The position numbers were made by a program, and so were the translations under genes. DNA of 64,000 nt from the IMG/VR virus record IMGVR_UViG_3300022885_000007, one strand, 5' to 3'. Below the pieces are notes generated by a model that saw nothing but the letters and a program-made list of their open reading frames with translations, searched no databases and was not told the DNA's origin. Below, piece by piece: positions 353 to 46,049 of this stretch; positions within the stretch are counted from its first letter, which is position 1, and the number at the start of each line of letters is the position of its first letter. Origin of the DNA: an uncultured virus (IMG/VR IMGVR_UViG_3300022885_000007). Lineage: Duplodnaviria; Heunggongvirae; Uroviricota; Caudoviricetes.

Positions 353-883
353 ATGACTAAAGAACAAGAGTTACAGAAAGCACTACAAATCGCACAAGAT
401 GCACTAACTGCTTATCAATCTGGGCCTCAGCCGCCTGAGGTGTGGATACCTGATTCAAGGGAAAAATACTACTCAGTTGCGCAGTCTGGGTATCATGTGA
501 ATTTTGCTAACGAGAATAAGAGAACCGACCGGGCGTTAGCTATTAGAGGCAACTGCTATCAAACAGAAGAATTATCACGGAAAGCGGCAGAGTATATGAG
601 AGTTCATGGGTTAATACTTCAAGCTTCTCTTAATGTCGAGGGTGATTTTGAACATCAACTGAGGGATACTACTGAGTGGAAGTGGTCGCCGGGATATAAT
701 AGCGAGGATTGTCGATGGATGCCGATATTTTCACAGATGGTATACCATGGTGAACCGGTACAATCTACAAAATTTAAATGCCAACAAGTCTGTGACATTT
801 TAGACCACATTAAGCTAAGACCAGCAGAATTTTATAATGGTCGGCCCACTGAACCGTTCACTGGAACAATGAGCGTTCGATGA
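353..883 (+). CDS. Hypothetical protein, same repeated family
   Basis: GLILQASLNVE..QSTKFKCQQVCDIL motif; GAGGTG SD upstream. Confidence 0.75.
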   Translation: MTKEQELQKALQIAQDALTAYQSGPQPPEVWIPDSREKYYSVAQSGYHVNFANENKRTDRALAIRGNCYQTEELSRKAAEYMRVHGLILQASLNVEGDFEHQLRDTTEWKWSPGYNSEDCRWMPIFSQMVYHGEPVQSTKFKCQQVCDILDHIKLRPAEFYNGRPTEPFTGTMSVR

Positions 884-1307: not shown

Positions 1308-1670
1308 ATGAGACCAACTTTAAGTATAGCCATAGTCGGAGGCAGAGACTTTGATGACTACCCACTACTAGAATCTACGATGGATTTTTACTTAGGTGGT
1401 GAAGAACTTGACGTATGTATTGTGTCGGGCGGTGCCAAAGGTGCAGATACTCTTGGGAAACGATATGCAGATGAAAAAGGCCTGACAACTATAATCTTTG
1501 TTGCTGACTGGAATACTCATGGTAAGAGTGCAGGTTATAAACGTAACGTAAGTATCGTTAAGAACTCTGATGCTGTAATAGCCTTCTGGGACGGTAAGTC
1601 CAAAGGAACCAAACATACCATAGACCTTGCCAATAAAGCTGACAAGCCGGTATTGACAATTAACTACTAA
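1308..1670 (+). CDS. SLOG superfamily protein (DUF2493/YspA-like)
   Basis: IVGGRDF, SGGAKGAD, AGYKRN and FWDGKSKGT motifs. Confidence 0.8.
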   Translation: MRPTLSIAIVGGRDFDDYPLLESTMDFYLGGEELDVCIVSGGAKGADTLGKRYADEKGLTTIIFVADWNTHGKSAGYKRNVSIVKNSDAVIAFWDGKSKGTKHTIDLANKADKPVLTINY

Positions 1671-3089: not shown

Positions 3090-3488
3090 ACAGGAAAGCA
3101 AGCCATGTTGATAGCCGAAATTATGATGCTGAAGCAAAAAACTTATTGAAAGAAGTTAAAGGCAGCCAAATCTATGCTTTGTATGATTTGGCTATTACAC
3201 AATTAAAGAAATCGTGCAGTGACGAAAGACGCAGGGAATTAGAGGCTGTTAAAAAAGCCGTTGAAAAAATACCACACATTGATAGGCCACGACTAGCAAA
3301 GATTATTCGAGGGTATCGAAGTTCTATGGCCCAAGATGCCAGAGCCGTTGATGGTAATACCAAGAAAGAACGAAAAAAAGGATAAAAGAACATTTATCAT
3401 GAATCTCAGATTTTATGATAATGTATTATGTGGCAGGGTTATTTGGGTTTCTAACAGATGCGATAGGTTTCGTGTTTGCCCAAAATAC

Positions 3489-6780: not shown

Positions 6781-7361
6781 AGATAGATTTGAGCATAAAG
6801 CAGGCACTGTTGTGTATGAATTCATCGGACATGATTATGGGTGCAGAAGGGACGATGAATGGTGTACTAAAACACCTCATTCTGTAGTAACATTAGAGTC
6901 AGATGGGTCAGGAGCATTCTTCACTGTACCAACAGAGGATTTATCATAAAACACGATCATGGACCATGGCGTAGATTTAACGAATGGATAGACGATCTAC
7001 CTTGGCAAGAATATGGTGGTGTTCTTGTCGAAACAAGAACCGTACCCGTAAGTGGTCCTTTTCCAGAGGGCCACGGAATGCATGGGTTGAATGAGTGGGA
7101 TGAAGTTCAATGTACAACAACAAAAATGCTTTCGTATCGTCCTATAGAAAGACGGGTGATATGGGAGGCTAAGACTTATTGTGGAGTAGGCGTACCCACC
7201 GACCATCTGGAGAGGGTGCATATAAGAGAGTTTGAGAATGCGATGGAAGTAAAGAAGAACAAGGGAAAGAGGGTTTTGAAAAAGATACAGCCCATGACCA
7301 TAGAGCTTGCGCCCGAAGGTGGATCACCTTACCCACCCGACTTTTATGAGGAGATTTAAGA

Positions 7362-8114: not shown

Positions 8115-9221
8115 ATGATAATTAAAGAATTACTGCGCGAAGACGAGAATGTTTCTCGCCATAAACCACATCTATATTTAGATATGGATGGAGTCCAGGC
8201 TGACTTTGATAAATCATGGTGTGAGTTTGAAGGGGTTAGTGATTGCGAAGACATAGCCAACCCAGAGCAGTCAATACAGCGTTTGGCAGCCGGCGGATCT
8301 GACGCTGTATACGAGTTTTTCCGCGATCTGGAGACCCTAAGGGGAGGCCTAAGCGTTATTAAGTGGCTACAACAACATAATATCAACTATACAATACTTT
8401 CTGCACCTTTAAGGTATGATCCTGAGCCAAGTATCAAAGGCAAGCAAGAATGGCTTGATAAACACCACCCAGGAACGTCTGAGGACGCCATATACACATC
8501 TAACAAGTACAAGTATGCAACTGACAAAAATGGCAATCCCAACGTGCTAATCGACGATTACAGCAAGAATATAGTCCCATGGGACAACGCAGGGGGCATA
8601 GCAATCACGCATGATCCAGCTGATGCAGGGCCCACAATCAAAGCACTTGAGCAGATATATCTCAAAGATGAGATAGATGAAGCAAGTCCTGACACATTAG
8701 AGGGTAGTTTTACCCCTGATCTACAGTATAGTAAAGTCTGGTTACTAGATGAGGTACAGAAGATACTAAAGAAAGCCAAAGTACCAAATTTAGATACTAT
8801 CTATAACTTAGGTAGTTGGTACAGTAACATGGGATTGTTCTTAGTTGCGAACAAGTTAGGGTTTAACAAGTTAATCAACGTTGATATAGATGAGAATACA
8901 TTGACAACAGGAGCAAAACTACTAGATAAACTCGGTATATCTGATAAAGTAGAACATATGCACAAGGATGCCAATACAATAGACTACAGACAACTTAAAT
9001 CTCCTGGACTAGTTATCAATACATCGACTAATGACATTGATGGAGATGATTGGTTAAAGAATATCCCTGAGGGGACATTAGTTGCAATGCAAGGTAGACA
9101 CGGAACACTAGCAGAATTTGACAATCAATTCCCATTGAGGAAAACATACTTTTTAGATGAAGTTGAACTGGAAGATCCAGAGACTGAATATGAAAGGTTT
9201 ATGAAAATAGGTGTTAAATGA
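8115..9221 (+). CDS. Fusion of a HAD 5'(3')-deoxyribonucleotidase-like domain and a class I SAM-methyltransferase-like domain
   Basis: LDMDGV, ILSAP, LIDD; then NLGSWY..VDID..DAN..INTS. Confidence 0.7.
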   Translation: MIIKELLREDENVSRHKPHLYLDMDGVQADFDKSWCEFEGVSDCEDIANPEQSIQRLAAGGSDAVYEFFRDLETLRGGLSVIKWLQQHNINYTILSAPLRYDPEPSIKGKQEWLDKHHPGTSEDAIYTSNKYKYATDKNGNPNVLIDDYSKNIVPWDNAGGIAITHDPADAGPTIKALEQIYLKDEIDEASPDTLEGSFTPDLQYSKVWLLDEVQKILKKAKVPNLDTIYNLGSWYSNMGLFLVANKLGFNKLINVDIDENTLTTGAKLLDKLGISDKVEHMHKDANTIDYRQLKSPGLVINTSTNDIDGDDWLKNIPEGTLVAMQGRHGTLAEFDNQFPLRKTYFLDEVELEDPETEYERFMKIGVK

Positions 9222-9871
9222 TTTATTTTGAAGATGACTTCTTACCAGAAGATCAATTTTTAGCACTAAAAGCGCAAGTTGAATCTAAGTATAAGCCTAT
9301 AAAACCTAGAAAGTTATTCGCTAACTATGACTACAGACTAGAACCAGACAAATTTATTCTGCCTGTAGCACGAACAGGTAACTGGATGGATAGTTGTACA
9401 CAAGCGGTCGAATGTATCCCTGCTTTGCAAAAAATGGAAGACACACTGAAGTCATTGGGCATACAAGAATTAAAGAACTGGTCATCTTGGTTTCAATATT
9501 CAGTAGATACAATGTCTCTTCCTGTCCACAGAGATCAATCAGTAAGAAAGAGTTTACCTAAAGATACTTACACTGCTGTTATCTATACAAGTGATTGGAA
9601 GCCTAATTGGGGAGGAGAATTTGTTGTAGGCAAGCCAGTCTTTGATAGACCAGGCGGAAATGTAAAATCATTAACAAACTTTACTCACACTATCGAGCCT
9701 AAACCAAATCGTATGACTATATGGAGCAGAGAAGAATGGCATATGGTCAATGCACTAACTGTTAATGATCCTGACTATGTTAGATCATTCATGGGTACTA
9801 GCTGGAGTTCAGTAGAAAACAGTGAATATGAAAATAACCCATATCAACGTTTTTACTTTACTGAAAGATGA
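9218..9871 (+). CDS. 2OG-Fe(II) oxygenase (prolyl-4-hydroxylase-like)
   Basis: EDDFL, HRD, WKPNWGGE, PNR, WH..R. Confidence 0.85.
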   Translation: MIYFEDDFLPEDQFLALKAQVESKYKPIKPRKLFANYDYRLEPDKFILPVARTGNWMDSCTQAVECIPALQKMEDTLKSLGIQELKNWSSWFQYSVDTMSLPVHRDQSVRKSLPKDTYTAVIYTSDWKPNWGGEFVVGKPVFDRPGGNVKSLTNFTHTIEPKPNRMTIWSREEWHMVNALTVNDPDYVRSFMGTSWSSVENSEYENNPYQRFYFTER

Positions 9872-10524
9872 TATACTACCAAGATAATTTTTTACCCCAA
9901 GAACAGTTTGAAGCCTTAGCGAAAAGAGTACAAGGAAGATTTGGAACTGGAGACACACGTAGCTTAGTTGAAGATTCTGATGAGCCAGTAAGATTAACTT
10001 ATCACGACCACACTGGGAATTGGCGTGAAGGGTGTAATTTTCTAGGACATGAATGTATTCCAGCTATAGAAAAAATCATTGCGACTATGGAAGAGAACAA
10101 CATTGAAAATATAAAAAACTGGTCTGTATGGTTTCAATATATTATTGACACCATGACTTTGCCGCCACACCAAGATACAGGTTTGCGTAAAAGTGATCAA
10201 GCAAATACATACACTGCGGTTATCTATACAAGTGATTGGAAGCCGGGATGGGGCGGCGAGTTTATCGTAGGTGAACCAGTCTACAAAGAACTAGAGCCAT
10301 CACTAGCTAAATCAATGATTCATGCCAGAGCAGACTCGCTTACTAATTTAACGCATGTAATTGATCCAGTACCAAATCGGATGTTGATGTGGAGCAGAGA
10401 AGAATGGCATGCAGTAAACAAAGTTACTGTTAATGATCCGAAATACATGAGAGCGTTCTTTGGAACTGGTTGGAGTTCGATAGACGTAAATGCTATAGCC
10501 CGCAATGCAACAGAGCACGGATAA
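9868..10524 (+). CDS. 2OG-Fe(II) oxygenase, paralogue of the upstream gene
   Basis: HQD, YTAVIYTSDWKP.WGGEF, PNR, EEWH. Confidence 0.85.
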   Translation: MIYYQDNFLPQEQFEALAKRVQGRFGTGDTRSLVEDSDEPVRLTYHDHTGNWREGCNFLGHECIPAIEKIIATMEENNIENIKNWSVWFQYIIDTMTLPPHQDTGLRKSDQANTYTAVIYTSDWKPGWGGEFIVGEPVYKELEPSLAKSMIHARADSLTNLTHVIDPVPNRMLMWSREEWHAVNKVTVNDPKYMRAFFGTGWSSIDVNAIARNATEHG

Positions 10525-11134
10525 TAATATGATATTTAAAGAAGACAATTTTTTACCAATCGATGTGCTTGACAAGTTAAGTGACAAAACAGCATATCTT
10601 TATAAATTGGCTAAAGTAGAAACATCCTTTCTGAATATCACGGTACCAGTGATAGACGATGATAATGGTGTATACGAAATTACTCAAAGTAAGCAATTTT
10701 GCAAACGATTTAGATTTTTCTGTAACGGCGATGATGTAATGAAAGAAACAGTGGATTTCTTTGGAGAAGACATAGAAAAAGTGATACTGTGCACCAAGCA
10801 ATACATCATTGATCAGGGTTGGAAAGACATCAAGTTAAGTAATGTATGGTTTCAGTACGGAGATACCGAATCACTGATGCATAGACACACTGACGGACAA
10901 ATACGCGGTGTAGAATATCAAAATTGTCTTACGTCTATGATTTTCTGTCACAAAAAATGGGATGATGATTGTGGAGGTATCTTCAGAGCAGTAGATGGCG
11001 ATACTACCAAATCATTCGGGCCCACGCCTAATCGTTTAGTTGTATGGAACAGAAATCATGCTCACTGGATGACGCCTATAGTCAAGGAATGCCCACTTAG
11101 AATGTTTATCGGAATGTCTTGGTATGCAAAATAA
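10505..11134 (+). CDS. 2OG-Fe(II) oxygenase
   Basis: EDNFL, HTD, WDDDCGG, PNRLV, H..R. Confidence 0.8.
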   Translation: MQQSTDNNMIFKEDNFLPIDVLDKLSDKTAYLYKLAKVETSFLNITVPVIDDDNGVYEITQSKQFCKRFRFFCNGDDVMKETVDFFGEDIEKVILCTKQYIIDQGWKDIKLSNVWFQYGDTESLMHRHTDGQIRGVEYQNCLTSMIFCHKKWDDDCGGIFRAVDGDTTKSFGPTPNRLVVWNRNHAHWMTPIVKECPLRMFIGMSWYAK

Positions 11135-13707: not shown

Positions 13708-14280
13708 ATGATAAAACAATATAAACAAGCAGTAACCGAAGGGAAAAGAGTAAATAGACCGGCCGACATCGAGATCATTCCTCTTAACTTTGATGCTAAG
13801 GAAGTAAAGCCAGTAATGAGCCAAGACACCCTAGATTTACATTATGATAAGTTAGCGAAGGGTTATGCGACACGGTATAATAAACACGAAGGGAAGGCTG
13901 AATTTAATTATGCAGGAGCTTTTTTGCATAATATTTATTTCCCGCAGTTTAGAGAAGTAATAAACAATAACAAACCCAATGGGCCTATCAAAGGCTTTAT
14001 TGAAAAGAAATTTGGATCGTTTGAGTTGTTTCAAAAAGAAGTCGAAGTGAAAGCAATGGCAATCGAAGGATCAGGTTGGGTATACCTTGCAAAAGACGGC
14101 AAGGTCAAGATAATAGAAAACCACGAAGTACGAGATGATATATTGCTATTGATTGACTGGTGGGAACATGCATTTATTTTAGACTATGGCGCTGATAAGA
14201 AAAAATATCTTAAAGAAACATGGAAGATTATTAACTGGAACGTAGTTTCAACACGATGGGGGCATACTGCAAAAAAATGA
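13708..14280 (+). CDS. Fe/Mn superoxide dismutase-like protein
   Basis: LHY, LHNIYF, GSGW and DWWEHA motifs. Confidence 0.85.
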   Translation: MIKQYKQAVTEGKRVNRPADIEIIPLNFDAKEVKPVMSQDTLDLHYDKLAKGYATRYNKHEGKAEFNYAGAFLHNIYFPQFREVINNNKPNGPIKGFIEKKFGSFELFQKEVEVKAMAIEGSGWVYLAKDGKVKIIENHEVRDDILLLIDWWEHAFILDYGADKKKYLKETWKIINWNVVSTRWGHTAKK

Positions 14281-16880: not shown

Positions 16881-16957
16881 TGGTACACCCTGCAGGACTC
16901 GAACCTGCTACCCTTGGTTTAGAAAACCAATGCTCTATCCAGATGAGCTAAGAGTGC
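16881..16957 (-). tRNA. tRNA-Arg(TCT)
   Basis: Cloverleaf, anticodon loop TTTCTAA, encoded CCA. Confidence 0.93.
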
Positions 16958-16964
16958 ATTAATT

Positions 16965-17040
16965 TGGTGCGTCTTGTTGGGATCGAACCAACTACCAGCG
17001 GATTAAAAGTCCGATGCTCTTCCAGATGAGCTAAAGACGC
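16965..17040 (-). tRNA. tRNA-Lys(TTT)
   Basis: Anticodon loop CTTTTAA, CCA. Confidence 0.93.
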
Positions 17041-17048
17041 ATTGTTCT

Positions 17049-17133
17049 TGGTACGAAAGGAGAGACTCGAACTCTCACGGGTTGCCCCACTGGAACCTAA
17101 ATCCAGCGTGTCTACCAATTTCACCACTCTCGC
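17049..17133 (-). tRNA. tRNA-Leu(TAG)
   Basis: Loop TTTAGGT, long variable arm, CCA. Confidence 0.92.
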
Positions 17134-17199
17134 ATTTCAATTTATAATAGCATCATAACACAACTTCAGCGTCATGTACACTACTATTTGTTATATTTG

Positions 17200-17274
17200 A
17201 GCGTATACTCGGATTCGAACCGAGACTTAAAGGGTGGAAGCCTTTCGTGCTTAACCGTTAAACACTATACACGC
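17200..17274 (-). tRNA. tRNA-Gly(TCC), CCA not encoded (followed by CAA)
   Basis: Loop CTTCCAC, GCG acceptor, U73. Confidence 0.88.
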
Positions 17275-17289
17275 ATAATTCTTTTCTTT

Positions 17290-17868
17290 CTAACTCACTC
17301 CTTCACTAAAATCAATGGCCATCTGTTTGGCATCGTCCATTGTTTCAGCAACCCACTCACCACGACCTAATGGGTTAATACGATCAATAGGATAAAGTGT
17401 TCCGCCTATCGTGTTGCGTAGCTTTTTGTTTGGAACAGTGTCTGAGTAGTCCCACTTTATATCGTAATACCGTTTACCATCTTGTTCAACAATAATACCA
17501 TCACATCTACTATTTAGGTGGTATTCATTTGCCAAAAAGTCAATCGCGGCTTGTTCTGCCTCTTCATCTGAGCTTGCCACATAATGGCAATCGGCTTTAG
17601 TACATGTTGACCCAACTTTAAAACCATAAATTGTTCGATGACTCCAACCATACCATTTTTTATCTAGAGGACTATATCCTACGCCATGTGTTAGTTCTTC
17701 AGTTATTTCACGTTCAGCTAGGTGTTTTACATCATCTTCCATGCCGACATGGGTGATATAACTACCATCAAAAATACTTTCGTACACGTTAGTGGGTGGC
17801 TCACTTTTTGGGCCAATCTGTATCATTGTTTTATATGCTACCTTATCTAACCATTCGGTAGTGTTCAT
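17290..17868 (-). CDS. Hypothetical protein inside the tRNA array
   Basis: 192-aa ORF with a GGAG SD; KWYGWSHR motif. Confidence 0.75.
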   Translation of the reverse strand: MNTTEWLDKVAYKTMIQIGPKSEPPTNVYESIFDGSYITHVGMEDDVKHLAEREITEELTHGVGYSPLDKKWYGWSHRTIYGFKVGSTCTKADCHYVASSDEEAEQAAIDFLANEYHLNSRCDGIIVEQDGKRYYDIKWDYSDTVPNKKLRNTIGGTLYPIDRINPLGRGEWVAETMDDAKQMAIDFSEGVS

Positions 17869-17894
17869 ACGTCTTTCTCCATTATATAATTGTT

Positions 17895-17968
17895 TGGCAT
17901 ATCAGTGAGGAATCGAACCCCAGTCTAGGGGTTTGGAATCCCTCGTTCTGCCACTGAACTACTGACAT
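17895..17968 (-). tRNA. tRNA-Trp(CCA)
   Basis: Loop TTCCAAA, CCA. Confidence 0.9.
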
Positions 17969-17976
17969 ATTAACAT

Positions 17977-18052
17977 TGGGGTGAGCAAAGGGATTCGAAC
18001 CCTCGTTTTACAGGTTCACAACCTGCGGCTTTACCACTAAGCTACACTCACC
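17977..18052 (-). tRNA. tRNA-His(GTG)
   Basis: Loop TTGTGAA, G-1:C73, CCA. Confidence 0.92.
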
Positions 18053-18059
18053 ATTAATC

Positions 18060-18136
18060 TGGTCCGTTTATCAGGATTCGAACCTGAAGTCTGACGCTTC
18101 GTAGACGCCTGCTCTATCCAGTTGAGCTATAAACGG
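18060..18136 (-). tRNA. tRNA-Arg(ACG)
   Basis: Loop CTACGAA, CCA. Confidence 0.92.
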
Positions 18137-18143
18137 TCTAAAT

Positions 18144-18217
18144 TGGCCTGTTTATCAGGGATCAAACCTGCTCAATCTTTGCGCTGAGATTGATGTTCTT
18201 CACTGAACAATAAACAG
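18144..18217 (-). ncRNA. Non-canonical tRNA-like RNA (7-bp anticodon stem, 8-nt loop CAGCGCAA, no variable loop)
   Basis: Perfect acceptor CTGTTTA/TAAACAG plus GCCA; D stem GTTC/GAAC; TCAATCT/AGATTGA; T arm CAGG-TTTGATC-CCTG. Confidence 0.75.
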
Positions 18218-18224
18218 TCTAAAT

Positions 18225-18301
<77 letters not shown>

Positions 18302-18307
18302 AATAAT

Positions 18308-18384
18308 TGGTCTAGGAGGTAGGATTTGAACCTACGACCTCTTCGTTCCAAACAAAGCACGCTACCAGACTGCGTTACTCCTAG
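18308..18384 (-). tRNA. tRNA-Pro(TGG), second divergent copy
   Basis: Loop TTTGGAA, CCA. Confidence 0.88.
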
Positions 18385-18389
18385 ATAAT

Positions 18390-18557
18390 TTGTTATGATG
18401 AAAGATGTGGTTGTCGAATTCACAATCTTCACGGAAGTGTTCCAACTTCTACGATGTCTTACCTATTAGACGACCTTTCAATCAATGTTGGTGCAAACAA
18501 ACGAGTACTCATCGATCTACACCACATGATCAGAACGCGCATCCTGATCAAAGTCTT
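18390..18557 (-). ncRNA. Structured ncRNA family, copy A (with tRNA-like domain)
   Basis: AAGACTT-hairpin-GG..CC-AACAT-TGATTGAAAG..CTTTCATCA-TAACAA; internal D arm GTCT/AGAC and TTCGA loop. Confidence 0.7.
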
Positions 18558-18561
18558 AAAT

Positions 18562-18675
18562 TTGTTATGATGAAAGAGCATGCGTCCATACCTTTTCATC
18601 AATGTCGGTGCAAGTTAAAGGCTAGTAAAACTTTTCACCCCCCGTTTAAAGCGTTTATTCCTTAAACTAAGTCTT
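18562..18675 (-). ncRNA. Structured ncRNA family, copy B (no tRNA-like domain)
   Basis: Same termini and linker; 5' AAGACTT begins 7 nt after a -10 box. Confidence 0.7.
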
Positions 18676-18681
18676 AGTCTT

Positions 18682-18710
18682 ATTGTAATATAATGATTAC
18701 CCAAAGTCAA
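18682..18710 (-). promoter_or_regulatory. sigma70-type promoter inside the RNA array
   Basis: TTGACT-N17-TACAAT. Confidence 0.8.
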
Positions 18711-18737
18711 CCTTTTTCTCGGTTGAATTTCATTAAA

Positions 18738-18880
18738 TTGTTATGACTGAAAGGGTGTGGTATCGAACCACACTTCTTTCCGCTCCGGCGCGTCTTACCC
18801 ATAGACGACCTTTCAATCAATGTCGGATACAATCATGTATTGTACCGCTCGTTTAAAGTGCGCACTTTAAACAAAGTCTT
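18738..18880 (-). ncRNA. Structured ncRNA family, copy C (with tRNA-like domain)
   Basis: Same scaffold; TGAAAGG/CCTTTCA, GTCT-ATGGGTA-AGAC and GTGTGG-TTCGATA-CCACAC. Confidence 0.72.
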
Positions 18881-18956
18881 AAATTAGTGAGGGTCTCTCC
18901 CCTCGGTCACGATTTCACTCGTCGGGTCGGCGCCGTCTTCAACCGCGCATTAAAGT

Positions 18957-19031
18957 TGGCAGAGATGGGTGGGATCGAACCACCTCCTAGAGGGTTCAAA
19001 ACCCCCCGCCTTCCCACTTGGCTACATCTCA
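18957..19031 (-). tRNA. tRNA-Gln(TTG)
   Basis: Loop TTTTGAA, CCA. Confidence 0.9.
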
Positions 19032-19037
19032 ACTAAC

Positions 19038-19112
19038 TGGCTGGTAAGGTAGGGATCGAACCTACGACCTGGTGATTAACAGTCACCTGCACTGCCGCTG
19101 TGCTACTTACCA
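19038..19112 (-). tRNA. tRNA-Asn(GTT)
   Basis: Loop CTGTTAA, CCA. Confidence 0.93.
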
Positions 19113-19121
19113 TTTGTAAAT

Positions 19122-19197
19122 TGGCGGTCTGGACGAGGATCGAACTCGCTGATTCTCCGCAGACAACGGAGCGCATTACCACTATTGCTACCAAACC
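19122..19197 (-). tRNA. tRNA-Asp(GTC)
   Basis: Loop TTGTCTG, CCA. Confidence 0.9.
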
Positions 19198-19233
19198 TTA
19201 TTATATCTATATATCACTTTCTTACTTACAAAT

Positions 19234-19311
19234 TGGTTGCGGAGAGTTGGATTCGAACCAACGACCCTCGGATTATGAGTCCGACGCTCTGACCGACTGA
19301 GCTATCCCGCA
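19234..19311 (-). tRNA. tRNA-Met(CAT) with an initiator-like acceptor
   Basis: Loop CTCATAA; GCGGG..CCGCAACCA. Confidence 0.88.
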
Positions 19312-19315
19312 TCAA

Positions 19316-19390
19316 TGGGGGAGTAGCGAGGAGTCGAACCTCTTTAACCGTGCGGGCAACTTGTTGCATTACCGCCAATAGGACTACTCC
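19316..19390 (-). ncRNA. tRNA-like RNA with an intact acceptor and T arm but no canonical D or anticodon arm
   Basis: GGAGTAG/CTACTCC plus CCCA; GAGG-TTCGACT-CCTC. Confidence 0.65.
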
Positions 19391-19396
19391 ATAATC

Positions 19397-19472
19397 TGGT
19401 GGAGATATAAGGACTCGAACCTTAAACCGTCTCGTTGCAAACGAGATGCACTACCAATTGTGCTATATCCCC
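19397..19472 (-). tRNA. tRNA-Ala(TGC)
   Basis: Loop TTTGCAA, G3:U70, CCA. Confidence 0.93.
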
Positions 19473-19480
19473 TAAAATCT

Positions 19481-19562
19481 TGGTGGAGGCGATAGGTGTC
19501 GAACCTACACACTACTAACAATGATCAACTGTTAGCACACACTTCCATCGTGCGAAACCCCC
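19481..19562 (-). ncRNA. Non-canonical tRNA-like RNA with an Ala-type acceptor (G3:U70, A73), a 9-bp anticodon stem and loop TTGATCA
   Basis: GGGGGTT..CGCCTCC-A-CCA; GCAC/GTGT; TGCTAACAG/TTGTTAGTA; GTAGG-TTCGACA-CCTAT. Confidence 0.78.
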
Positions 19563-19570
19563 TTTGTTCT

Positions 19571-19646
19571 TGGTGGATAGTACAGGCATCGAACCTGTGA
19601 CCTATGCCTTGTAAGGGCACCGCTCTGCCGTCTGAGCTAACCATCC
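19571..19646 (-). tRNA. tRNA-Val(TAC)
   Basis: Loop CTTACAA, CCA. Confidence 0.92.
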
Positions 19647-19654
19647 TATAATTA

Positions 19655-19790
19655 ATAATATCCTCTAATACCGGCCTGCATAAACACCGAACACCAGAGG
19701 ATATTAAGTACCTCTTACAATAATAGATTGACACGTATCAACTATTATTCTCTATCATCAGATAAGGTCTTTAGAGAATTTATTATCTAA
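19655..19790 (-). ncRNA. Candidate three-hairpin ncRNA or leader
   Basis: TTCTCTA/TAGAGAA, TAATAG/CTATTA and TAATATCCTCT/AGAGGATATTA stems directly after a promoter. Confidence 0.4.
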
Positions 19791-19798
19791 TATTACCT

Positions 19799-19827
19799 AT
19801 GATATCAGAAAGATAATCCTATGTCAA
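19799..19827 (-). promoter_or_regulatory. sigma70-type promoter inside the RNA array
   Basis: TTGACA-N17-TATCAT. Confidence 0.75.
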
Positions 19828-19844
19828 CCTTTATCGCAATTTAA

Positions 19845-20102
19845 TAATCCTCTAATGGTTTCCACGTTCGAGACACTTTCACCATTAGAGGATGTCAGAC
19901 ATACAGGCAGTGATCAATCCTGCCTGGCTACACCATGTCAACTCATAGATGTCTATTACACGACCTAGAACTTACACTTTCAGTCTTCGATGCAGACTTT
20001 CCTCATACCGACCGTAGTTCGCTTTCGCAGGCTCGATCTTAAACCCTTGTTAAGACCCATGATGATCGTGGAGTCCCTCTAATATCCCTTGCAATGGATA
20101 TC
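19845..20102 (-). ncRNA. Candidate ~260-nt structured ncRNA
   Basis: Multiple hairpins, including CAGGCAG-GATTGATCA-CTGCCTG and a 12-bp terminal stem ATCCTCTAATGG/CCATTAGAGGAT; no ORF. Confidence 0.55.
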
Positions 20103-20106
20103 AAAC

Positions 20107-20183
20107 TGGTAGTTCTGGTAGGGATTGAACCTACGACCTTCCCATTATGAGTGGGATGCTCTGACCAACTGAGCTACAGAACA
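20107..20183 (-). tRNA. tRNA with CAT anticodon (Met or lysidine-type Ile2)
   Basis: Loop CTCATAA, CCA. Confidence 0.88.
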
Positions 20184-20195
20184 ATTAAATCTTTT

Positions 20196-20251
20196 AATCA
20201 GATAGAGCCGTTACCGACAAACACCTCAGCTTAATCTGATTCCACCGAGGC
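20196..20251 (-). ncRNA. Candidate pseudoknotted small RNA
   Basis: GCCTCGG/CTGAGGT crossed with AATCAGAT/ATCTGATT; GTCG-GTAA-CGGC hairpin. Confidence 0.45.
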
Positions 20252-20260
20252 TATATTAAT

Positions 20261-20335
20261 TGGTAGTTCCGACAGGACTTGAACCTATGTCTGTCGATTA
20301 TCAGTCGAATGCTCTACCAACTGAGCTACGGAACT
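20261..20335 (-). tRNA. tRNA-Ile(GAT)
   Basis: Loop CTGATAA, CCA. Confidence 0.92.
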
Positions 20336-20345
20336 ATTAAATAAT

Positions 20346-20448
20346 AAAGACCCCCAAGTTTGCGGATAGTAAACCATAGCCTCTGGGGGTACAACAGACA
20401 GTGATCAACTCTGTCTGGCTACACTGGGCGAGCCTTTGTGTAGTCTTT
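20346..20448 (-). ncRNA. Candidate ~100-nt three-hairpin ncRNA
   Basis: CTACAC/GTGTAG, CAGACAG-AGTTGATCA-CTGTCTG and ACCCCCAG/TTGGGGGT. Confidence 0.6.
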
Positions 20449-20450
20449 TT

Positions 20451-20541
20451 TGGAGGAGAAAGAGGGATTCGAACCCTCGATACGCTATTAACATATAAAC
20501 CCTTAGCAGGGGTTCGCCTTCAACCACTCAGCCATTTCTCC
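20451..20541 (-). tRNA. tRNA-Ser(GCT)
   Basis: Loop CTGCTAA, long variable arm, CCA. Confidence 0.92.
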
Positions 20542-20548
20542 TAATAAA

Positions 20549-20632
20549 TGGAAGAGGGAGAGGGATTCGAACCCTCGAAGCTTTCGCGGTGGATTTGCAA
20601 TCCACCTCCTTTGACCGCTCAGAAACCCCTCT
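20549..20632 (-). tRNA. tRNA-Cys(GCA) with a Tyr-type variable arm
   Basis: Loop TTGCAAA, U73, variable arm CGCGAAAGCTT. Confidence 0.85.
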
Positions 20633-20638
20633 AGCATT

Positions 20639-20727
20639 TGGCGGAAGATGAAGGATTCGAACCCTCGAAGCTTTTTACACTCTCCTGTTTTCAAAACAGG
20701 CGCATTCGGCCGCTCTGCCAATCTTCC
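20639..20727 (-). tRNA. tRNA-Ser(TGA)
   Basis: Loop TTTGAAA, long variable arm, CCA. Confidence 0.92.
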
Positions 20728-20928
20728 TGAAGCTTTATTTATCCCAACGAATTTATTTGTATTAATTGGGTTGTCCCTATTCAGAGTGTCACAACTCCAT
20801 TCTTGTCATCGAAGGGAACACAACGACTAACCTAATTTCAAGAGGTTCGCAGTAAACGTCTGGGCCTTAACTCCCCCGACTGTCGTTGATTTGCTACGCT
20901 GGCTCAACTGACCTAAGCCATTTCAATA

Positions 20929-21003
20929 TGGTACCCTGTAAGAGACTTGAACTCTTATTGCTGGGTTGAAAACCAAGTGTCCTAACCTTTGGACGAACAG
21001 GGC
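20929..21003 (-). tRNA. tRNA-Glu(TTC)
   Basis: Loop TTTTCAA, CCA. Confidence 0.9.
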
Positions 21004-21079
21004 AATAAATGGTCGCCTATTATCAAACCGGACGATACGGTCACCTCTTTCTACTGAATAGTAGGTGAGCATCTTACAT

Positions 21080-21165
21080 TGGTGAAGAGAGTTGGATTCG
21101 AACCAACGAAGCTTTCGCGTCAGATTTACAGTCTGATCCTTTTAACCGGACTCAGGCACCTCTCC
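21080..21165 (-). tRNA. tRNA-Tyr(GTA)
   Basis: Loop CTGTAAA, variable arm, CCA. Confidence 0.92.
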
Positions 21166-21171
21166 ATTGTT

Positions 21172-21247
21172 TGGTACCGAAACTTGGAATCGAACCAAGG
21201 ACACGGAGGTCTTCAACCTCCTGCTCTACCAACTGAGCTATCTCGGT
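21172..21247 (-). tRNA. tRNA-Phe(GAA)
   Basis: Loop TTGAAGA, CCA. Confidence 0.92.
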
Positions 21248-21254
21248 GTTAATT

Positions 21255-21330
21255 TGGAGCCCAAGATAGGATTTGAACCTACGACATCCTGATTACAAAT
21301 CAGGCGCTCTGCCAACTGAGCTACTCGGGC
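21255..21330 (-). tRNA. tRNA-Thr(TGT)
   Basis: Loop TTTGTAA, CCA. Confidence 0.93.
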
Positions 21331-24896: not shown

Positions 24897-25553
24897 TCAT
24901 ACCGTCCACTTCCCTTTGTCGTGATCGAACGTTTGTTTATAGTAGGTGCGTGAAGCATGATGATACACACAGATACCTTCAGGTTTATTGAACTTTTCAA
25001 CCATACTACCATCGCGCATGAGCATTTCCATAGCAACATCTGGATCACCACCGCATAACTCAGTAAGGTCTGGAACAACATGACAACACTTAGGTGTATT
25101 AGGATTGTGAACACCCCATCGTAGCACGTTGAACAATGCAAAGCGTTTCTCTGTTAGTCCATATCCTCGTTGAATCCCCAAACCCATCCACTCACCGAAG
25201 TGGCGACCTTCACCCATCTTGAATAACTCTTCTGAGTTGTCATACACCCATCGAGCAAACCCAAAGTTGTCAGTTCCTTTTACTGCGACTCCATCACTAT
25301 CATTAATATGACCGTTCGTAGCAATCCAACGCTTGCGACTTCCCGCATACATAACGAGTGCGGGATCAGATTCTGTGTCACCATACAGTACATCGATACA
25401 GTACGGATCTTGGTTACATTCATCATGCGCTTCGTGATTAGACATTTCAAATATTGATACTTGTGCATTCGTCCCATCTAGTTTCTCGGTGATCGTTTGA
25501 TCACTCTTTAGTCGTGCAATTTTCCCGAAGGATTCAAATTCAAACTGACTCAT
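24897..25553 (-). CDS. RNA ligase (ATP-dependent nucleotidyltransferase family)
   Basis: TEKLDGTN motif I, GSRKR, FGEW.G.GIQ and PEG..K. Confidence 0.8.
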   Translation of the reverse strand: MSQFEFESFGKIARLKSDQTITEKLDGTNAQVSIFEMSNHEAHDECNQDPYCIDVLYGDTESDPALVMYAGSRKRWIATNGHINDSDGVAVKGTDNFGFARWVYDNSEELFKMGEGRHFGEWMGLGIQRGYGLTEKRFALFNVLRWGVHNPNTPKCCHVVPDLTELCGGDPDVAMEMLMRDGSMVEKFNKPEGICVYHHASRTYYKQTFDHDKGKWTV

Positions 25554-25790: not shown

Positions 25791-26981
25791 CTATCCTTTG
25801 ATACAAAGAACTTGCTTTATTTCGTGGACTATCTCCACAAGGTCGCTTTGCGCTTTCATTACATCATCGATAGGCTTATATGCACTTGGTGTTTCGTCGA
25901 TAATATCTTCATCAATTCGACATTCAACTCCCTTTACGTCCTCTTCATGTTGCTGTAGTGTCACTAGTTTTTTTGCTTGAGTTCTGGACATCACTCTTCC
26001 TGCCCCGTGACTGCAACTATTGAAGGATTCTGGATTTCCAAGACCTTTCACTATGAAGGATCTCTGACCCATACTACTAGGGATTATCCCATACTGTCCA
26101 CGTCTTGCAGATACAGCACCTTTACGAGTTACCCACACATTTTCGTTGTAGTGATGTTCTTTTTGCACGTAATTGTGGTGGCAGTCAACTGTCAACTCAT
26201 CGATACTGAACTCTTTCGTGTGCTTTCGTAACACCTTGAGTGTGTTCTCCATCATTAGTGCGCGGTTCATCTTAGCGAACTCTTGTGCCCAGTTAACAGA
26301 TTCTATGTACTGATCAAAGTAAGCAGAGCCTTCTGGTAGGTAAGCTAGGTCAGCATCAGGTAGAGAGACAAAGTACTTTTCCATTTCTTTTTTTGCTTTC
26401 TCGATGAAGTATCTTCCTATAGCATTTCCAACTCCTCGACTACCAGAGTGTAGCATCACCCATACTGAATCATCAGCTTTCTCAATACAAACCTCTATGA
26501 AGTGATTACCACCCCCTAGCGTTCCAAGGTGAGCTATGTTGTTTGTGTTCTCAACAGGACAAAAATCAAGTATCCATTTAAATCCAGGCTCTAGTTTGTT
26601 ATTCCACAAATCTGTCACAGCTTTAGGTAGCTGTTGTATGTCATGCTTACCTTGCCCTACTGGGACAACCGATTCGATATCAAGACGCAATGCTTTGAGA
26701 TTGTCTGGTAGGTCTGCCGCATTTAAAGATGTTTTTACTGCTTGCATACCACAACCCAGATCAACTCCTACGGCAGACGGTATGATAGCTTTCTTTGTTG
26801 CTAATACAGTTCCAATAGCACAACCTTTACCTAAGTGTGCGTCAGGCATTGAGGCTACCCATTTGTGGATGAAGGGCATATCTGCTAAGTTAAGCAGTTG
26901 CTCTTTTACGTTATCATCGAATTGAACTCCATCAGACCACGCTTTGACTATATTTCTTTTACCTTTTAATACTTCCATCAC
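25791..26981 (-). CDS. rtcB: RtcB RNA-splicing/repair ligase
   Basis: MPDAH, GVDLGCG, GGGNHF, HSGSRG, HHN, RKGA, HGAGR and DETPSAYK motifs. Confidence 0.95.
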   Translation of the reverse strand: MMEVLKGKRNIVKAWSDGVQFDDNVKEQLLNLADMPFIHKWVASMPDAHLGKGCAIGTVLATKKAIIPSAVGVDLGCGMQAVKTSLNAADLPDNLKALRLDIESVVPVGQGKHDIQQLPKAVTDLWNNKLEPGFKWILDFCPVENTNNIAHLGTLGGGNHFIEVCIEKADDSVWVMLHSGSRGVGNAIGRYFIEKAKKEMEKYFVSLPDADLAYLPEGSAYFDQYIESVNWAQEFAKMNRALMMENTLKVLRKHTKEFSIDELTVDCHHNYVQKEHHYNENVWVTRKGAVSARRGQYGIIPSSMGQRSFIVKGLGNPESFNSCSHGAGRVMSRTQAKKLVTLQQHEEDVKGVECRIDEDIIDETPSAYKPIDDVMKAQSDLVEIVHEIKQVLCIKG

Positions 26982-39543: not shown

Positions 39544-39561
39544 AAACGGCGCAAGCCGTTT
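39544..39561. terminator. Hairpin terminator between convergent genes
   Basis: AAACGGC-GCAA-GCCGTTT. Confidence 0.7.
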
Positions 39562-40151
39562 TAGTCACGGTTCTGAATTATTTCATCAACTAAGCCATAC
39601 TCTAAGGCTGTGTTAGCATTCATGAAATTATCACGCTCCATATCGGCGGACAATATGGCAAATGTTTTGCCTGCTGAATTGTGATGGACATAGATTTCAG
39701 TTAAAAACTGTTTCATCTCTAGGATTTCTTTAACTTGAATTTCCATATCGGTGGCCTGACCTCTTGCGCCACCCGAAGGCTGATGAATCATGTGCCTAGC
39801 ATGCGGAAGTATTTTACGTTTGCCTTTAGCACCTGCTTGTGCTAGTAAACTACCCATTGACGCCGCTTGTCCCATAACAATCGTGTTGATGTCTGGTTTA
39901 ATAAATTGCATTGTATCATAGATGGCCATACCTGCTGTTACACTACCACCAGGGGAGTTAATATACAAAGAAATATCGGCATCGCTGTTTTCACTCTCCA
40001 AGAATAGCAACTGGGCTACGATTAAATTAGCCATAGTGTCATGCACTTCGCCCTCTAAGAGGATCACACGATCACGCAGTAATCTACTGTAAATGTCGTA
40101 ACTACGTTCACCACGACTTGTTTGTTCTAAAACTATTGGTACCAGTGCCAT
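39561..40151 (-). CDS. clpP: ATP-dependent Clp protease proteolytic subunit
   Basis: [21 protein letters not shown] (Ser), MIHQP (His) and ERD (Asp). Confidence 0.97.
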
Positions 40152-44568: not shown

Positions 44569-44856
44569 TTAGTATTTTTTGGTACCACGTGATCCTGGCT
44601 GTAGAGACAATCTTTTTTGTTCTCGTTTGATTGCGGCGGCCTTTTTAAGTTTGCGTTTTGAGGTAGGTTTCTCGAAATACTCTCTTTCTCTAACTTCGAT
44701 AAGCAACCCTGAATTAGAAACTTTTTTCTTAAATTGACGTAATGCTTGTTCCACATTGCCGTTTATTACCGTGACAGCGTTGCCAATTGGTTGTTGGGTG
44801 TATGATTTTTTTGATGAATTAAAATTATTTTTGTAGTCAGTATTTTTATATGTCAT
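44569..44856 (-). CDS. rpsU: Ribosomal protein bS21 with an N-terminal extension
   Basis: VEQALRQFKKKV..G..EVREREYFEKPT.KRK. Confidence 0.9.
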   Translation of the reverse strand: MTYKNTDYKNNFNSSKKSYTQQPIGNAVTVINGNVEQALRQFKKKVSNSGLLIEVREREYFEKPTSKRKLKKAAAIKREQKRLSLQPGSRGTKKY

Positions 44857-46049
44857 ATAATTGTTTTTGGGTTTATTATTAAGTCCTTATCTATATTTAG
44901 CTCGGTAATACCCTTTCTTTTATATTTACCAACGTTAAACATATGAGGCATTAAAACTCTCTCGATTTCCGATTGTAATCCTCTTGCACCAGTTTTAGTG
45001 TTGATGCAATTAACCACCATCTCTTCAATGGCATCCTCGGTAAAACTTAGTGTAATGCCATCGATACCAAGCAAATAAATATATTGATCGATGAAGTTGT
45101 TTTTTACTGAAGTAAGTACTTTTATTAATTCATTCTTGGATAACTCTGCAACACTAATTGATGTAGGGAATCTACCGATAAACTCTGGAATCATTCCGTA
45201 TTTCATCAAGTCTTTGGGTGTCACATCAATGAAGTGTTCAGCTTGATCTTCTTTGAGTTTTGATACAAAACCAATACTTGTTCCTGTAGTTCTGGATTTG
45301 ATAACATCTTGTAAACCATCAAAGGCTCCACCTGCAATAAAGAGTATGTTTGTTGTGTCAATCTCAACGAGGGGTTCCTGCGGATGCTTACGTTTACCAT
45401 TAGGAGCAACTCGACATATAGTACCCTCTACTATCTTCAATAGTGCTTGTTGGACGCCCTCCCCGCTAACGTCACGTGTTATAGAGGCGTTCTCACTCTT
45501 ACGTGCGATTTTGTCTATTTCATCTATGAATATAATACCACGTTCTGCTTTCTCGACATCATCACCAGCTTTTGATAACAGGACGCCTAACATGCTCTCT
45601 ACGTCATCTCCTACGTATCCTGCTTCTGTTAAATTAGTGGCATCAGCAACGATAAAGGGAACATCTAAGTACCTTGCTACAGTTTGTGCAAGTAATGTTT
45701 TACCACACCCAGTTGGACCAAGTAACAGAACATTACCTTTATGTATTGTTAGCCCTTTTGGCGGTGGATTAAAAACTCTTTTGTAATGGTTTGATATCGC
45801 GACCGCTAGAACTTCTTTAGCAGTAATTTGGCCAACAACATACTTGTTTAGGTGTCGCATGATAGATTGTGGATCCATGCTCTTTGGAGGGTCGTTGGCC
45901 TTTACAGGTACTTGTTCATCCTCTATTAGTTGCTGACAAAGCGATACGCATTCTGAACAAATCGCGACATTTTCTCCAACAATTAATTTAGTAACAATTT
46001 CCTTAGGATTGCCGCAAAACGAACAGTTTACTTCTGATTTATCACTCAC
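44853..46049 (-). CDS. clpX: ATP-dependent Clp protease ATPase subunit
   Basis: CSFC..CSEC zinc finger, GPTGCGKT, GYVG, FIDEIDK, RDVSGEGVQ, RKH and IGF loop. Confidence 0.97.
   Translation of the reverse strand: MSDKSEVNCSFCGNPKEIVTKLIVGENVAICSECVSLCQQLIEDEQVPVKANDPPKSMDPQSIMRHLNKYVVGQITAKEVLAVAISNHYKRVFNPPPKGLTIHKGNVLLLGPTGCGKTLLAQTVARYLDVPFIVADATNLTEAGYVGDDVESMLGVLLSKAGDDVEKAERGIIFIDEIDKIARKSENASITRDVSGEGVQQALLKIVEGTICRVAPNGKRKHPQEPLVEIDTTNILFIAGGAFDGLQDVIKSRTTGTSIGFVSKLKEDQAEHFIDVTPKDLMKYGMIPEFIGRFPTSISVAELSKNELIKVLTSVKNNFIDQYIYLLGIDGITLSFTEDAIEEMVVNCINTKTGARGLQSEIERVLMPHMFNVGKYKRKGITELNIDKDLIINPKTII

Follow-up and report, generated by a model that had tools for sequence, protein, structure and literature searches.

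The tRNA array of a large phage raises the question of why three different RNAs encoded among its tRNAs should present the same loop, UUGAUCA, at the tip of a hairpin. The array lies in a stretch of 64,000 nucleotides from an uncultured virus (IMG/VR IMGVR_UViG_3300022885_000007), referred to here as the window. The window is part of a phage of salt-lake metagenomes, with at least half of the sampled words present in 14 of the 24 listed runs, six of which may be sources of it. The relatives of the phage are distant and reach up to 352 kb; 25 loci were found through ORF 21340 (38–61% identity) and six through Tad6. The Rfam gathering score is reached by 23 of the 25 ARAGORN calls in the array, and the region 18100–21100 contains, besides tRNA, no Rfam family at its cut-off. 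Elsewhere in the window there are three endonuclease V (denV)-like genes in tandem (9218–11134, plus strand; PHROGs E 4e-5 to 4e-7), a superoxide dismutase gene (13708–14280, Pfam), and genes for a phage-encoded ClpP-like protease and ClpX-like ATPase (39561–40151 and 44853–46049, minus strand). The three RNAs that carry the loop, here termed E1, E2, and M, are predicted from their sequences to be separate expressed RNAs. Their coordinates are collected in Table 1.

Table 1. Features of the tRNA array and its surroundings, and look-alikes of M in other elements
Feature	Position	Strand	Description
tRNA array	16881-21330	minus	25 ARAGORN calls
Tad6 (anti-Thoeris) gene	17290..17868	-	within tRNA array; Pfam PF25188, E 6.7e-36
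tRNA-Arg-derived mimic	18144..18217	-	7-bp arm, loop CAGCGCAA; z -2.6; CCA-ending
ncRNA-like copy A	18388..18560	-	two 5' hairpins (loops GCGC, GUAC) and tRNA-derived 3' module
Copy B	18561..18680	-	shortened paralogue; hairpin 1 loop non-palindromic
Copy C	18735..18885	-	hairpin 1 loop GCGC, hairpin 2 loop ACAUG, tRNA-derived 3' module
Third mimic	19316..19390	-	acceptor, T-arm and CCA, no D-arm; long arm, loop not palindromic
tRNA-Ala(UGC)	19397..19472	-	
M, tRNA-Ala-like mimic	19481..19562	-	82 nt; G3.U70, A73, encoded CCA, T-loop UUCGA
Sigma-70-like promoter	19799..19827	-	between E1 and M; 11/12, extended -10; consensus match only
Possible larger RNA around E1	19883..20084	-	bracketed by 9-bp long-range stem
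E1	19903..19933	-	GUGUAGC leader and 7-bp hairpin 19904-19926; 9-nt loop GA-UUGAUCA 19911-19919
tRNA-Ile(GAU)	20261..20335	-	directly downstream of E2; loop CUGAUAA
E2, whole element	20345..20448	-	between tRNA-Ser and tRNA-Ile; three hairpins, tRNA-like spacing
E2, module copy	20394..20424	-	7-bp hairpin 20395-20417; loop AG-UUGAUCA 20402-20410
RNA ligase gene	24897-25553	-	upstream of array
RtcB gene	25791-26981	-	upstream of array
L191 mimic	1501-1605	-	105-nt cloverleaf, G3.U70, A73, CCA, UUGAUCA loop
L221 mimic	501-570	-	in prophage-like element

E1 and E2 are identical at 27 of 31 nucleotides, as the first-pass annotation had stated, and each forms, on the minus strand, a 7-bp stem with a 9-nt loop of two purines followed by UUGAUCA. 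All 14 stem cells of their alignment pair, and the four differences consist of one swapped pair and the two 5' loop purines. The compensatory swap claimed for the stem was found at one of its seven pairs, which differs on both sides (G-C to A-U). The covariation score of the two sequences was matched by 266 of 500 shuffles, so this pair does not amount to statistical covariation. The repeat itself is not due to chance: among the non-tRNA segments, with copies A, B, and C excluded, the best ungapped 31-nt match had 27 identities, compared with no more than 23 in any of 100 shuffles. As paralogues, E1 and E2 stem from a single duplication, and the UUGAUCA loop of the three RNAs therefore represents at most two independent occurrences.

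The E1 hairpin has a folding z of -4.1, and its sequence is invariant across two contig pieces (contigs from four sequencing runs); none of the pieces listed covers the hairpin of E2. In the model a 2-bp GA/UC pairing closes part of the E1 loop, with unpaired probabilities of 0.3–0.5 at the U and the C. The larger fold around E1 (19883..20084) is no better than that of shuffles (z 0.06) and has no Rfam match. For E2, the whole-element fold has a z of -1.8 and a weak closing stem. Its UUGAUCA hairpin is the second of three, preceded by 1 nt and followed by 4–5 nt, and E2 can be modeled as a cloverleaf in which this hairpin would take the place of the anticodon arm. Neither E1 nor E2 has a T-loop or a CCA, and the 9-nt loops of both can be read in another register. 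The interval 19650–19895 contains two similar long hairpins (about 19655–19710 and 19850–19893) that flank an imperfect inverted repeat, which includes the promoter at 19827 and a degenerate copy facing it. A third half-site, at about 20084, is able to compete for pairing with this repeat. The two hairpins are possibly RNase III-type processing stems or a switch.

The loop had also been reported for M, and it is indeed present there at 19522–19528, at the tip of a 9–10-bp arm. M has all parts of a cloverleaf (acceptor, D-arm, T-arm, and CCA), and its D-stem is the same as that of the adjoining tRNA-Ala(UGC), the probable parent of its body. The UUGAUCA occupies the position of the anticodon loop, as U32 U33 G34 A35 U36 C37 A38. 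Compared with a canonical decoding tRNA, M has an anticodon stem of 9–10 bp instead of 5 bp and a C instead of a purine at position 37, and the Rfam tRNA model RF00005 does not match it up to an E value of 10. G3.U70 and A73 are identity elements of alanyl-tRNA synthetase, and the Ala-type G3.U70 of M is at odds with its isoleucine anticodon, GAU.

Read in this register, UU-GAU-CA is an isoleucine anticodon loop in which A37 has become C. The loop of the phage's own tRNA-Ile(GAU) differs from it by two substitutions, at positions 32 and 37. The palindromic hexamer UGAUCA, which had been pointed out as self-complementary and is so, arises in positions 33–38 from the A37C change in the isoleucine loop. 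When a covariance model was built from E1 and E2 only, M scored highest of the new matches among 298,442 bases, at 17.3 bits (E 0.5); the runner-up was barely below it, at 16.1 bits. The four apical base pairs of M and E2 agree except for one wobble. The likeness of M to E1 and E2 is modestly beyond chance.

The word itself is frequent in this DNA. TTGATCA has 33 matches in the window compared with 16.7 expected, and TGATCA, with 42 sites, is its third commonest palindromic hexamer. Some loop 7-mer was common to two segments in 304 of 2000 shuffles and in 22% under a second null, and a shared loop 7-mer that contains a 6-nt palindrome was obtained in 19 of 2000 shuffles and 0.9% under the second null. 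These figures bear on a neutral explanation, in which the loop has no special function. A stable hairpin in processing spacers or decaying tRNA copies would recently have been duplicated locally to give E1 and E2, and M would match them since any loop derived from tRNA-Ile lies one or two steps from UUGAUCA. The abundance of TGATCA and the ease with which some 7-mer is found in two loops agree with such an origin. By a hand calculation, the four differences between E1 and E2 would leave the 7-mer untouched about one time in three anyway. Related arrays, none of which has the module, often contain non-canonical T-arm elements whose loops vary. However, all four differences preserve the stem, M retains its acceptor, D/T elbow, and CCA, the sharing of a palindromic loop is expected at about 1% by chance, and three other elements show the loop again on long arms. 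We regard neutral duplication as somewhat unlikely.

The loop could alternatively be a mimic of the 16S rRNA 5' end, or of a DNA operator, and titrate a ribosome-assembly factor or nuclease that reads positions 13–19. UUGAUCA occurs once in the 16S rRNA of Escherichia coli (13–19), which may not be the host, and not in the 23S rRNA, and M matches eight nucleotides at the 16S site. An 8-mer is, however, shared with 16S rRNA at 93 of 4460 array positions, so the match of M is of a common kind, and the stems differ. Such mimicry is very improbable. A CRISPR repeat mimic, an HDV-like ribozyme, and a group I intron were rejected by inspection against their consensus.

No orthologues of E1, E2, or M were found in IMG/VR, GTDB, metagenomes, cultured phages, or related arrays. 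Exact E1/E2 patterns had no matches in IMG/VR or GTDB, and a looser pattern matched at least 117 loci in metagenomes, with no tRNA-array module among the matches listed. When the region, the surroundings of E1, E2, and M were compared with cultured phages by blastn, tRNA parts or short chance matches were the only results. The E1/E2 pattern and the covariance model R1 matched 0 of 16 virus records, which are mostly fragments, in a run without a positive control, and the module is absent from the related arrays searched.

The loop is nevertheless found on other tRNA-shaped RNAs. In IMG/VR, 14 loci were found with the loop upstream of a T-arm and CCA: one mimic (L191), four tmRNAs with the word elsewhere, one tRNA-Tyr-like element with the word in the variable arm, and eight loci without a cloverleaf. 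Like E1 and E2, the long arm of the L191 mimic has a 2+7 loop on a terminal 7-bp stem. The phage that carries this mimic is small and unrelated; the mimic stands alone in its early region, and no relatives of it were found. In GTDB, 32 loci yielded one clear case (L221), four tmRNAs, and two doubtful hairpins (L216 and L234). No relatives of the L221 mimic were found, and the loop is carried by none of the four mimics in three elements related to L221. The four elements (L221, L370, L371, and L372) are Oscillospiraceae prophage-like elements that have a small membrane-protein gene and one or two mimics with an aberrant anticodon arm near a homologous gene; by inspection, without PHROGs support, they are inovirus-like. 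Related arrays were also scanned, without use of the motif, for T-arms that lie outside tRNA calls, and this revealed a 106-nt mimic (L183) with a long arm tipped A-CUGAUCA-A. Position 32 of this loop is C and not U, a variation that tRNAs allow, and the long arm may be a variable arm. No relatives of L183 were found beyond three identical records.

A control pattern, TTG-NN-CA, gave at least 117 loci in IMG/VR, at least 95 of them distinct and at least 47 with a T-stem. Of the matches listed, 47 have a T-stem. Among these, an arm of at least 5 bp is tipped by the heptamer in L191, one of four with UUGAUCA, and, in a shifted register, in three ordinary tRNA-Ala, but in none of the 40 others. 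L191 is the only non-canonical long arm with a heptamer tip among the matches listed (Fisher p 0.09 against the control), and L221 has no control. Related arrays contain one UGAUCA-tipped hairpin in 103,251 bases, whereas 180 permutations averaged 3.3, a figure inflated by a few canonical tRNA loops. The recurrence of YUGAUCA-tipped long arms on tRNA-shaped RNAs of three unrelated mobile elements is thus suggestive and not established, and closeness to the isoleucine loop could explain it without shared function. No description of this loop class was found in the open-access literature; supplements could list such RNAs.

Other structured RNAs were observed in these loci. Two different large phages (L052, about 3235–3320; L181, about 7010–7100 and 7270–7360) share a conserved tRNA-like RNA that ends in CCA, contains a second, internal T-loop-like hairpin, and has no ARAGORN call. 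A structured non-tRNA segment of ~55 nt after tRNA-Ala is common to the arrays of related phages (L049 and L051). A GOLLD RNA adjoining tRNA-Lys (L199, 924–1386, minus strand) was a chance match of the pattern scan. An element called as tRNA-Arg(GCG) in L278 has C37 and a weak anticodon stem, and a perfect palindrome of 10 nt spans its anticodon loop.

Within the array, the copies A, B, and C (18388–18885) have common 5' and 3' ends. In A and C, the 3' end is a cloverleaf resembling tRNA-Gln, closed by a 10-bp stem and lacking CCA; this cloverleaf is lost in B. The second-hairpin loops of the three copies contain three different 4-nt palindromes, and the last loop of B is GACG. The GCGC loops described in the first-pass annotation were located in hairpin 1 of A (18537–18540), in hairpin 1 of C (18860–18863), where the loop is the center of a long perfect inverted repeat, and in the mimic at 18144; the paralogue B is without one. 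The A/C motif had a single match in IMG/VR, in unrelated coding DNA, and the model R2 over 16 sources found only A and C themselves and tRNA-Gln at an E value of 4.6. The mimic at 18144–18217 is a copy of tRNA-Arg(ACG), in tandem with it and diverged from it. Together with the third mimic (19316–19390) and the copies A, B, and C, it indicates that the phage makes non-coding RNAs from tRNA copies.

It had been proposed that these loops assemble the RNAs with each other by kissing. Self-pairing of UGAUCA would then produce homo- and heterodimers of E1, E2, and M, and A and C would pair separately through GCGC, comparable with OLE, GOLLD, and the retroviral DIS. Palindromic loops are indeed enriched. 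In this phage's non-tRNA segments, palindromes of at least 4 nt are present in 11 of 29 non-T loops (E1 is not among these loops, and E2 is counted as negative), about twofold the 17.6% of shuffles, and 0 of 150 shuffles were as high; seven loci of related arrays have 29 in 204 (Fisher p 0.003). The palindrome lies off the hairpin axis and so is not simply the center of a perfect inverted repeat. UGAUC is predicted to be unpaired in M and mostly unpaired in E2, the L183 loop has the 2+6+1 layout of DIS, and other mimics carry other palindromes (UUAUAA in L372, UGCGCA in L278). GAUC is described as one of the covarying palindromes in the symmetric kissing bridge of OLE (PMC12286853).

The energetics and the distribution of the palindromes count against kissing. 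The UGAUCA self-duplex, at -5.0 kcal/mol, ranks 37th of 64 palindromic hexamers, compared with -7.9 for GUGCAC. Five of the eight GC-containing palindromic loops come from the paralogues A, B, and C, of which B lacks GCGC, and the enrichment is weaker when 6-nt palindromes are counted (4 of 29 loops; 9 of 150 shuffles). Ordinary tRNAs have palindromic loops as well: 2 of 24 have 6-nt palindromes in the anticodon loop (tRNA-Ala and tRNA-Cys), and UUCGAA occurs in many T-loops (six T-loops in the fold). On cofolding, homodimers as extended duplexes were 9–11 kcal/mol better than monomers, and mixed pairs gained at most 0.4. Any hairpin gains as an extended homodimer, so cofolding is not evidence on kissing.

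HIV-1 DIS, OLE L9.3, and GOLLD L21 likewise carry a self-complementary word in an apical loop, and GOLLD, too, resides in tRNA arrays. The 9-nt loop of E1 and E2, with two variable 5' purines, resembles these, and the palindrome is identical in the two paralogues. In the RNAs studied here the 6-nt palindrome is exposed apically, with the E1 loop predicted to be partly closed and the last A paired in M. The DIS palindrome is described as GC-rich (PMC7357161) and as requiring unpaired flanking purines (PMC7357161, PMC5874298). In contrast, UGAUCA is AU-rich (G/C at two of six positions), E1 and E2 read RR-U-palindrome with no purine on the 3' side, and M has only a U. The part of the proposal that stands is the enrichment of palindromic loops and the GAUC bridge as a precedent; the pairing itself would be weak, and the palindrome follows from A37C. 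A single RNA network, as had been suggested, is unsupported, because with one palindromic loop per RNA (M, E2) only dimers could form, and GCGC cannot pair with UGAUCA. Dimerization through kissing loops is unlikely.

Comparison with other known RNA classes did not provide an assignment: E1, E2, and M do not qualify as decoding tRNA, tmRNA, YrlA, GOLLD, or DIS. The acceptor with G3.U70, A73, and CCA and the T-arm are common to tmRNA, tRNA-Ala, M, and the L191 mimic. Unlike tmRNA, M is only 82 nt long, has a D-stem, and has no tag frame or pseudoknots; no tmRNA was called in the window by ARAGORN or Rfam. GOLLD, ROOL, and OLE had no Rfam match. YrlA (RF02553) scored only 19 bits against a cut-off of 69, in a match that spans two ordinary tRNA-Pro genes, and no Rsr/TROVE gene was present among the 30 of 131 ORFs scanned against Pfam.

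We tentatively prefer a different explanation, that the hairpin of M, E1, and E2 is a non-decoding isoleucine-loop decoy for host effectors that target tRNA. The hairpin would be a disabled tRNA-Ile(GAU) anticodon stem-loop (Y32-U33-GAU-C37-A38) placed on the over-long stems of tRNA-derived RNAs. The array would be transcribed and then cut by host tRNA-processing enzymes. M would be released as a stable tRNA-shaped RNA, since it retains the acceptor, elbow, and CCA; it could be charged with alanine, and its long arm and C37 would block decoding. The module would have been copied into E1 and E2. A single partner would meet the loop on all three RNAs. This partner would most likely be a host effector recognizing the anticodon arms of tRNA-Ile, and the RNAs, as decoys or poor substrates, would soak it up and spare the real tRNA-Ile. 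The palindrome would be a by-product of A37C. A shared protein or nuclease ligand, which the first-pass annotation had offered as another possibility, is plausible and would fit the anticodon-arm position of the loop.

Several observations argue for the decoy. The loop is in the anticodon position of M and, as modeled, in the same relative place in E2, and two substitutions would turn it into the loop of the phage's own tRNA-Ile. The E1/E2 model ranks M first, long-armed look-alikes are found in L191, L221, and L183, and Tad6, RtcB, and the RNA ligase provide an anti-defense context. HepS, an anti-phage nuclease, is described as cutting tRNA-Ile(GAU) as a secondary target (PMC13043305). P2-OLD is described as cutting at paired CNG motifs in anticodon stems, with A37 invariant in its substrates (PMC12445682). 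The E1/E2 stems have two paired CAG/CUG motifs; paired CNG motifs are common, so this match to P2-OLD is a weak lead. ItaT-type toxins were rejected as the partner of the loop because they are described as reading the amino acid and not the tRNA (PMC6125619).

Other observations argue against the decoy. M is barely above the next model match, the outside cases are few, UGAUCA tips are not enriched in related arrays, and the loop is absent from the mimics related to that of L221. The alternative register of the 9-nt loops in E1 and E2 and their lack of a T-loop and CCA also count against it. The phage tRNA counter-defenses described in PMC12445682 and PMC10264068 (anti-OLD, anti-PARIS, anti-retron) similarly involve altered anticodon arms in an anti-defense setting, but these nuclease-resistant tRNAs are decoders that replace the cut host tRNA and are not decoys. 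M differs from them by its 9–10-bp arm, C37, and acceptor misfit, and, as it could not decode, it could not act by replacement.

A broader form of the decoy explanation is that non-coding tRNA-shaped RNAs with an A37C isoleucine loop at the tip of a long arm have arisen repeatedly, in phages and prophages that are unrelated. The loop would be a portable anti-defense module, present here in three copies, that traps effectors targeting tRNA-Ile, possibly as self-kissing dimers suited to HEPN or Toprim tRNases, whose active sites are two-fold, and it would provide an RNA-only counter-defense by decoy and not by replacement. This broader form is distinctly doubtful.

E1, E2, and M are most like the unexplained tRNA-cluster RNAs of the T4 RNAC/RNAD type, to which they are not homologous. 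RNAC and RNAD (species 1 and 2) are likewise small non-coding RNAs within a phage tRNA cluster (PMC3014915, PMC9697503). RNAC has a T-arm-like 3' hairpin, as do A and C. Neither T4 RNA has the UUGAUCA hairpin, and expression has been shown for them, whereas E1, E2, and M are predicted from sequence. The models R1 and R2 had no match in the T4 region, and no sequence or structural homology to RNAC or RNAD was found. Non-coding RNAs of phage tRNA clusters such as these have gone without an assigned function for decades. The 7-nt loop, present on three RNAs here and on mimics of three other mobile elements, offers a small and cheap handle on their function. If the decoy explanation is true, phages would counter tRNA-cutting immunity by RNA sponges as well as by replacement tRNAs and ligases.
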